46,314 nt of DNA from the IMG/VR virus record IMGVR_UViG_2909303794_000006. The stretch is one strand, 5' to 3'. The notes under the pieces are model-generated. The model was not told the DNA's origin. It did no database searches and was given only the letters and a program-made list of their open reading frames with translations. Source of the stretch: a virus (lineage: Duplodnaviria; Heunggongvirae; Uroviricota; Caudoviricetes). Positions 37,918-39,395 of this stretch are shown piece after piece (positions within the stretch are counted from its first letter, which is position 1; each line of letters starts with the position of its first letter). Both the position numbers and the translations under genes were made by a program.

Positions 37918-38018
37918 ATGCAATATGCCATTGCAGGGTGGCCTGTTGCTGGCTGCCCTTCCGAATCTTTACTTGAACGAATCACCCGTAAATTACGTGA
38001 CGGATGGAAACGCCTTAT
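37918..38018 (+). pseudogene. cIII: cIII N-terminal fragment (split by IS629)
   Basis: MQYAIAGWPVAGCPSESLLERITRKLRDGWKRLI then IS end. Confidence 0.85.
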
Positions 38019-38072
38019 TGAACCGCCCCGGAAATCCTGGAGACTAAACTCCCTGAGAAAGAGGTAAACAGG

Positions 38073-38399
38073 ATGACTAAAAATACTCGTTTTTCCCCCG
38101 AAGTCCGTCAGCGGGCGATTCGTATGGTTCTGGAAAGTCAGGATGAATATGACTCACAGTGGGCGGCAATTTGTTCCATTGCCCCAAAGATTGGCTGTAC
38201 GCCGGAGACTCTGCGTGTCTGGGTTCGCCAGCATGAGCGGGATACCGGGAGTGGTGATGGTGGACTCACCACCGCTGAACGTCAGCGTCTGAAAGAGCTG
38301 GAACGTGAAAATCGTGAACTGCGCCGCAGTAACGATATCCTTCGCCAGGCTTCCGCTTATTTTGCGAAGGCGGAGTTCGACCGCCTCTGGAAAAAATAA
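38073..38399 (+). CDS. IS629 OrfA
   Basis: 108-aa HTH/leucine-zipper ORF. Confidence 0.9.
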
Positions 38400-39286
38400 T
38401 GCCACTGCTGGATAAGCTGCGTGAGCAGTACGGGGTCGGACCGGTATGCAGCGAACTGCATATTGCCCCGTCAACGTATTACCACTGTCAGCAACAGCGA
38501 CATTATCCGGATAAACGCAGTGCCCGTGCGCAGCGCGATGACTGGCTGAAGAAAGAGATACAGCGCGTATACGATGAAAATCACAAGGTATACGGTGTGC
38601 GTAAAGTCTGGCGTCAGTTGTTACGGGAAGGTATCAGAGTGGCCAGATGCACTGTGGCACGTCTCATGGCGGTTATGGGACTTGCCGGTGTTCTCCGGGG
38701 TAAAAAGGTCCGCACTACCGTCAGCCGGAAAGCCGTTGCCGCATGCGACCGCGTAAACCGTCAGTTCGTGGCAGAACGTCCAGACCAGTTGTGGGTGGCT
38801 GATTTTACCTGGGTAAGCACATGGCAGGGCTTCGTTTATGTGGCGTTCATCATTGATGTGTTCGCCGGATACATCGTGGGATGGCAGGTCTCATCATCCA
38901 TGGAAACAACATTCGTGCTGGATGCACTGGAGCAGGCGTTGTGGGCCCGTCGGCCGTCCGGCACAATCCATCACAGTGATAAAGGTTCTCAGTATGTATC
39001 GCTGGCCTACACGCAGCGGCTTAAGGAAGCCGGATTACTGGCATCAACAGGGAGTACTGGCGACTCGTATGACAACGCGATGGCGGAGAGCATCAATGGT
39101 CTTTACAAAGCGGAGGTAATACACCGTAAGAGCTGGAAAAACCGTGCAGAAGTGGAACTGGCCACACTCACGTGGGTGGACTGGTATAACAATCGACGAT
39201 TGCTGGAAAGGCTGGGCCATACTCCCCCGGCAGAAGCAGAAAAAGCTTATTATGCTTCCATCGGAAACGATGATCTGGCAGCCTGA
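38399..39286 (+). CDS. IS629 OrfB transposase (DDE)
   Basis: 295-aa integrase-core ORF. Confidence 0.9.
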   Translation: MPLLDKLREQYGVGPVCSELHIAPSTYYHCQQQRHYPDKRSARAQRDDWLKKEIQRVYDENHKVYGVRKVWRQLLREGIRVARCTVARLMAVMGLAGVLRGKKVRTTVSRKAVAACDRVNRQFVAERPDQLWVADFTWVSTWQGFVYVAFIIDVFAGYIVGWQVSSSMETTFVLDALEQALWARRPSGTIHHSDKGSQYVSLAYTQRLKEAGLLASTGSTGDSYDNAMAESINGLYKAEVIHRKSWKNRAEVELATLTWVDWYNNRRLLERLGHTPPAEAEKAYYASIGNDDLAA

Positions 39287-39328
39287 GTTCACAGATAAAA
39301 CACTCTCCAGGAAACCCGGGGCGGTTCA

Positions 39329-39395
39329 TATCGACATACTTAATCAGCCAGGAGTCCCAAAAAATGGATCAAACACTTATGGCTATCCAGACTAA
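39329..39395 (+). pseudogene. cIII: cIII C-terminal fragment
   Basis: ...[20 protein letters not shown] continues cIII in frame once the IS and one copy of tat are removed. Confidence 0.85.

Follow-up and report, generated by a model that had tools for sequence, protein, structure and literature searches.

An IS629 insertion in codon 34 of the cIII gene of a mosaic lambdoid prophage, with probable loss of CIII function and at most modest expected polarity on the pL operon

An insertion sequence interrupts the cIII gene of a lambdoid prophage immediately upstream of kil and gam. This locus raises the question of whether a genuine transposition event is recorded here and, if so, what it would mean for CIII itself and for the recombination genes that follow in the same operon. 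The analyzed stretch of DNA (46,314 nucleotides, referred to as the window) corresponds approximately to a whole lambdoid prophage in the orientation opposite to the lambda map. The minus strand carries the virion and lysis genes, then Q, a nin region interrupted by a second IS element, and the genes for P, O, CII and a P22-type Cro; a P22-c2-type repressor is encoded on the plus strand. The plus side continues with a pL-like promoter, a candidate nutL site, N, sieB on the opposite strand, ral, ea10 and the disrupted cIII, followed by kil, gam, bet, exo, ea22-like genes and int. The gene order ea10-cIII-kil-gam-bet-exo is exactly that of lambda, and sieB (superinfection exclusion B; 36299-36880, minus strand; Pfam, 79.5 bits) lies between N and ral in the orientation opposite to the pL operon, as it does in lambda. 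Beyond the tail-fibre genes lies a gene for an NleG-family type-III secretion effector (1396-2085, minus strand; Pfam T3SS_NleG, 150 bits), and because this effector gene is carried the prophage is considered to be of EHEC/EPEC type. The immunity region (35047-36282) is mosaic, with the P22-c2-type repressor and P22-type Cro accompanied by a lambda-family CII, and N appears by eye to combine phage-21-like and P22-like segments. The best match to the right-hand 25 kb among complete E. coli genomes covers only 61% of it, and the mosaic prophage is absent as such from that collection.

The limits of the insertion were determined by reading the sequence, by script and by alignment. At the left junction the flank ...GGAAACGCCTTAT is followed by TGAACCGCCCCGG..., and at the right junction ...CCGGGGCGGTTCA is followed by TATCGACATACTT.... 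The cIII frame takes on a different character at 38018/38019, after ...DGWKRLI, with the start of TGAACCGCCCCGGAAATCCTGG, and the reverse complement of this motif ends at 39328. The terminal inverted repeats are perfect over 13 of 13 nt and imperfect beyond; the 13-nt repeat occurs exactly twice in the window, once per strand and both times at an end of the element, against a chance expectation of 0.03 copies. Alignment places annotated IS629 copies at query positions 620-1929, equivalent to window positions 38019-39328, with the same end points. The element is IS629 (IS3 family), occupying 38019-39328 on the plus strand and exactly 1310 bp long, with its transposase genes co-directional with pL and with a TAT target-site duplication on its left (38016-38018) and right (39329-39331) side. 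Within cIII, the DNA is interrupted in codon 34 (AT|C), where the T that opens the IS remakes the isoleucine codon. Codons 1-33 and the first two bases of codon 34 form the 5' part of the gene (37918-38018, plus strand; Pfam Lambda_CIII positions 1-34, 78.6 bits), whose product begins MQYAIAGW at 37918 and is identical to residues 1-34 of lambda CIII. The 3' remnant (39332-39395, plus strand) supplies the last base of codon 34 together with codons 35-54 and the stop; past the IS the original frame resumes with the isoleucine and continues through a further 20 residues to 39395.

Empty counterparts of the site were available for comparison. In five related prophages or phages (L001-L005) a single TAT joins the abutting flanks, which identifies these loci as true empty sites. 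The closest relative for the segment from pL to cIII (L005) is 99.8% identical there and has an intact annotated cIII. When IS629 and one TAT were excised in silico, an in-frame ORF of 165 nt was obtained, and its 54-aa product is identical at 54 of 54 positions to lambda CIII (NC_001416) and to the annotated CIII of L005; this includes residue 20, which is E in the database record of lambda. The reconstructed gene matches Pfam Lambda_CIII (PF02061) with 105.4 bits against a cut-off of 25.7, and the excised DNA around the site is identical to the L005 empty site at 338 of 338 nt and to lambda at 99.4%. The initial annotation had described a 1310-bp IS629 between two TAT repeats, cutting cIII between KRLI and DILNQ. 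Script and alignment agree on its boundaries, which alignment to annotated copies does not shift; TAT is present at both ends and once in the empty sites; excision and translation return cIII in frame; and the cut as given is correct at the protein level, with the DNA break located inside codon 34. The insertion of IS629 in cIII is genuine and cleanly delimited.

The inserted element itself appears complete. Its orfA (38073-38399, plus strand) encodes a 108-aa helix-turn-helix protein that matches Pfam HTH_Tnp_1 and the N-terminal part of NCBIfam transpos_IS3. The orfB gene (38399-39286, plus strand) lies in the -1 frame relative to orfA and encodes 295 aa with a DDE/rve integrase core (Pfam rve, 94 bits; NCBIfam transpos_IS3, 311 bits). 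An ALIL pseudoknot, the stimulator of the -1 frameshift that yields OrfAB, was detected at 38354-38470 on the plus strand (Rfam RF01497, 120.3 bits), and identical IS629 copies carry a programmed frameshift in their RefSeq annotation. Over all 1310 nt the copy is 100% identical to IS629 in strain O103:H2 12009 and in many other non-O157 EHEC genomes. Over the full length, the annotated IS629 of phage BP-4795 is 98.6% identical to it, and the copies in Stx2a phages are 98.1% identical. All properties of IS629 that can be checked in a sequence were found, namely the length of about 1310 bp, terminal repeats beginning TGAACCGCCCC, sequence identity, the orfA and orfB frames with their frameshift signal, and the target duplication. 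The duplicated TAT falls within the 3-4 bp described for IS629, which is reported to have no sequence-specific target and to reside for the most part (62%) in prophages (PMC3271280). The intact ORFs and ends agree with an active element, and the copy is potentially, and probably still, active.

We consider it highly probable that the locus reflects an insertion of IS629 into codon 34 of cIII that causes loss of CIII and less lysogenization, leaves prophage maintenance unchanged and exerts modest polarity at most. In this reading an intact, probably still active IS629 transposed into this codon of a mosaic lambdoid prophage of the EHEC/EPEC type and duplicated TAT. The remaining product, residues 1-34 of CIII joined to 15 IS-derived residues, would be missing the end of the essential amphipathic helix (residues 14-37) as well as the conserved ILNQPGVP, and would most likely not inhibit FtsH. 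Upon infection, a faster FtsH-mediated turnover of CII would then lead to the production of less repressor and integrase, and lysogenization would be expected to fall, with a tendency towards clear plaques. After induction, N-antiterminated transcription from pL is predicted to read through IS629, so that expression of kil, gam, bet, exo, xis and int would be at most modestly below normal.

The last of these points was weighed against the arrangement of the operon. The genes immediately downstream of the IS are kil and gam, as had been noted initially, and kil, gam, bet and exo adjoin one another in the pL operon, each with a Pfam match. All four are intact and on the plus strand. The 54-aa kil product (39364-39528; Pfam Lambda_Kil, 71.8 bits) is identical to the annotated Kil of L005, and the gene starts 36 nt past the end of IS629, overlapping the 3' remnant of cIII. 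The gam gene (39462-39878; Pfam Gam, 215 bits) is a long ORF of 138 aa with a 98-aa form starting at 39582, and its product matches lambda Gam. It is followed by bet (39884-40669; Pfam RecT, 115.6 bits) and exo (40666-41346; Pfam YqaJ, 103 bits), annotated in L005 as bet and as a member of the lambda exonuclease family. Upstream, a consensus scan placed the pL-like promoter (TTGACC, 17-nt spacer, TAAATT) at 35787-35815 on the plus strand, past the P22-c2-type repressor gene, in the interval that separates cI (35047-35697) from N. A candidate nutL was read from the sequence at 35862-35902 (plus strand) as the boxA-like GCTCTTTAACA followed by a CCCGC...GCGGG hairpin, which is predicted by folding with a z-score that is not significant. 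The N antitermination protein (36010-36282, plus strand; 90 aa; Pfam N_peptide, 56.3 bits; annotated as N peptide in L005) and ea10 (DUF2528; 37477-37845, plus strand; Pfam DUF2528, 159 bits) are encoded between this site and cIII.

A strongly polar IS629 would stop pL transcription inside the element. Expression of kil, gam, bet, exo, xis and int would then be poor in an induced lysogen, with impaired recombination and excision and a tendency for the prophage to be locked in. In favour of this, IS629 precedes every one of these genes within one pL transcription unit, polarity is classical for IS elements in ordinary operons, and the second, IS100-like insertion in ninB could be taken as a sign of a prophage that is accumulating insertions. 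Against this, N, pL and the boxA-like nutL candidate are intact. RNA polymerase modified by lambda N reads past both intrinsic and Rho-dependent terminators for many kilobases, and classical work established that N releases IS polarity in N-antiterminated operons. Furthermore, the scan for terminator-like hairpins found none on the plus strand within IS629 (38019-39328) and three between N and cIII (37283, 37429 and 37869) that transcription must already read through to reach the gene. Because pL, N and the candidate nutL are intact, the upstream hairpins must already be passed and none lies on the plus strand of the element, small polarity is judged more likely than large polarity, and a strong effect on Red and Gam is doubtful; strong polarity as a whole is regarded as unlikely. 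Rho-dependent termination in poorly translated IS629 RNA is not predictable from sequence and counts against the expectation of low polarity. Were polarity nevertheless strong, the more serious consequence would concern xis and int, and hence excision. The reduced Red and Gam expression suggested in the initial annotation, where it was itself hedged, is accordingly worded here as doubtful and constitutes the weakest part of that account.

The second component of the preferred reading, loss of CIII, depends on what the disrupted allele can still encode. The control element for translation in the 5' part of the cIII mRNA is intact (37905-37963, plus strand; Rfam RF01804 Lambda_thermo, 88.5 bits with a gathering score of 50), so the fusion should be translated. 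The ORF list and alignment give this product as 49 aa (37918-38067, plus strand), consisting of CIII residues 1-34 and 15 further residues; it reads ...KRLI34 and then EPPRK..., with D35-I36-L37 and the conserved NQPGVP gone. Residues 14-37 of CIII are essential and sufficient, the single alanine substitutions S17A, R24A, L26A, R27A and R32A each produce a cIII-minus phenotype, and CIII acts as an oligomer in which the inactive R32A mutant still takes part and is dominant negative (PMC1838920). In the present allele the segment 14-37 is not intact: 21 of its 24 residues are kept, among them S17, R24, L26, R27 and R32, and two prolines stand where the helix would end with I36 and L37. Glu at position 35 is a natural variant in the alignment of homologs, and positions 35-43 with the ILNQPGVP motif are conserved in nearly all of 28 diverse homologs. 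As the end of the essential segment and this conserved motif are lost, the allele is most likely null, and we classify it as probably null on the basis of the predicted product. By analogy with published CIII biology, with which the proposal of the initial annotation agrees, we infer that an infecting phage would be biased towards lysis; CII of the same phage is full length (Pfam, 150 bits; minus strand). Maintenance and induction of the resident prophage need no CIII and should not change.

It is quite improbable that the fusion is other than null, so that residues 1-34 with their basic 15-aa tail would inhibit FtsH partially or act as a dominant negative in CIII oligomers. The retention of 21 of the 24 essential residues, including all five positions named above, the intact translational control element and the precedent of R32A, inactive yet oligomerizing and dominant negative (PMC1838920), are all compatible with such residual function. 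However, the essential region extends to residue 37 and now has two prolines in place of I36 and L37, the nearly invariant ILNQPGVP is lost, and single substitutions are sufficient to abolish CIII activity (PMC1838920). A specific version of this idea is very unlikely: the 49-aa fusion would be expressed and, like R32A, would inactivate CIII oligomers made by lambdoid phages that are co-resident or superinfect the cell. If true, other phages of a poly-lysogenic EHEC host, Stx phages among them, would have their choice between lysis and lysogeny shifted in trans.

Probable loss of CIII with modest polarity at most concerns infection and induction. It has also to be considered whether IS629 could alter the repressed lysogen by driving a low constitutive expression of Red, Gam and Kil, either by transcripts of the transposase promoter that extend past the element or by an outward promoter. 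The transposase genes are co-directional with the downstream genes, and the kil start follows the orfB stop after only 77 nt, a stretch that has no terminator-like hairpin. On the other hand, the scan returned no sigma-70-like promoter match at its threshold within IS629 or at its right end, and Kil is toxic to the host, for which reason appreciable constitutive expression would be selected against; we hold out very little prospect for this explanation. At the right end of the element, an outward-facing promoter or a hybrid one was specifically considered and rejected, as the scan gave no match.

The distribution of the insertion was followed through its two junctions, whose k-mers are AACGCCTTATTGAACCGCCCC and GGGGCGGTTCATATCGACATACTT. 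The exact cIII::IS629 junction was found in none of 5,426 complete E. coli genomes, where 300-nt junction queries gave two-piece gapped matches only, which represent IS copies at other nearby sites. It was likewise found in none of 50,697 phage records, which contained only empty sites or other sites; exact junction 21-24-mers had no match in IMG/VR, GTDB species representatives or JGI metagenome contigs; and an exact look-up of the 49-aa CIII-IS629 fusion protein returned no record. An assembly artefact that misplaced a multicopy IS629 into cIII would be consistent with the absence of the junction from all collections searched, but it was rejected as extremely improbable, since mis-assembly would not create a perfect 3-bp duplication, a length typical of IS629 duplications, and the collinear flanks rejoin with 100% identity to the empty site of the relative.

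In EHEC prophages this pL operon frequently carries IS629 at other positions, up to about 2 kb away. The element is located upstream of ea10 in phage JLK-2012, in ea10 of O157 strain 644-PT8 and of RM13322, upstream of cIII in strain 9000 and its relatives, and in exo of ST2-8624 and Stx2a_WGPS9. In UTAK-10 it follows kil, and gam, bet and the 5' part of exo are deleted. Among the pL operons of other EHEC prophages, L001, L002, L007, L008 and L009 show this recurrence of IS629-family elements at differing sites near cIII. A regional hot spot or a zone of tolerance for IS629 around cIII is plausible. All nearby copies that were inspected run in the direction of pL, but this apparent orientation bias was rejected as evidence because the search joins same-strand pieces only and would have missed copies in the other orientation.

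Three groups of known systems can be compared with this locus. The IS629 insertions of EHEC lambdoid prophages (exo::IS629 in ST2-8624 and Stx2a_WGPS9, ea10::IS629 in 644-PT8, methyltransferase::IS629 in phiPA2) involve the same element (98-100% identity, 1310 bp) and share with cIII::IS629 the 3-4-bp duplication, the type of host and the early-left pL operon. They are strain-specific and diversify otherwise similar prophages (PMC4587872, PMC3271280, PMC10810198). Unlike in these cases, the target here is cIII itself, and the junction is in no record of the collections searched. The classical lambda cIII mutants (cIII67 and the substitutions S17A, R24A, L26A, R27A and R32A) affect the same gene product, with a lesion in or next to residues 14-37, and as with these mutants reduced lysogenization and clear or less turbid plaques would be expected (PMC1838920). 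In contrast to the lambda point mutants, the present lesion is an insertion that generates a fusion with a replaced C terminus, and the immunity is of the P22 type and not of the lambda type. Finally, IS629 would be comparable to the classical IS insertions in N-antiterminated operons in that it lies inside a unit presumably read by N-modified RNA polymerase; the difference is that N and the candidate nutL are here of a P22/phage-21-like hybrid type.

Element, target gene and mechanism are each well known, as is this type of event, and only the particular site is unrecorded in the collections searched. The insertion represents one more strain-specific IS629 event with little import beyond annotation. 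IS629 insertions are a recognized main driver of small-scale diversity among EHEC prophages, and among otherwise similar Stx2a phages the copy number and position of IS629 are the main variation, sometimes with phenotypic effects (PMC4587872, PMC10810198). For the prophage the analysis yields the prediction of a cIII-minus, lysis-biased phenotype on infection, and the cIII::IS629 junction could serve as a strain-typing marker.

The second IS belongs to the IS21 family and is of the IS100 type (29951-31914, 1954 bp); its inverted ends are 28 nt long, and the direct repeat is the 5-bp AAACC. The element carries istA (30042-31064) and istB (31061-31843) and splits ninB into an N-terminal part (31887-32129; Pfam NinB positions 1-76) and a C-terminal part (29760-29951; Pfam NinB positions 74-131). 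Both insertions, cIII::IS629 and the IS100-like element in ninB, lie only in genes that lytic growth does not need, and are therefore no proof of a dead prophage. Downstream of Q, a low-GC segment (about 38%) contains a 252-aa ORF without a Pfam match (26533-27291, minus strand), at the position where morons such as stx are located in related phages.
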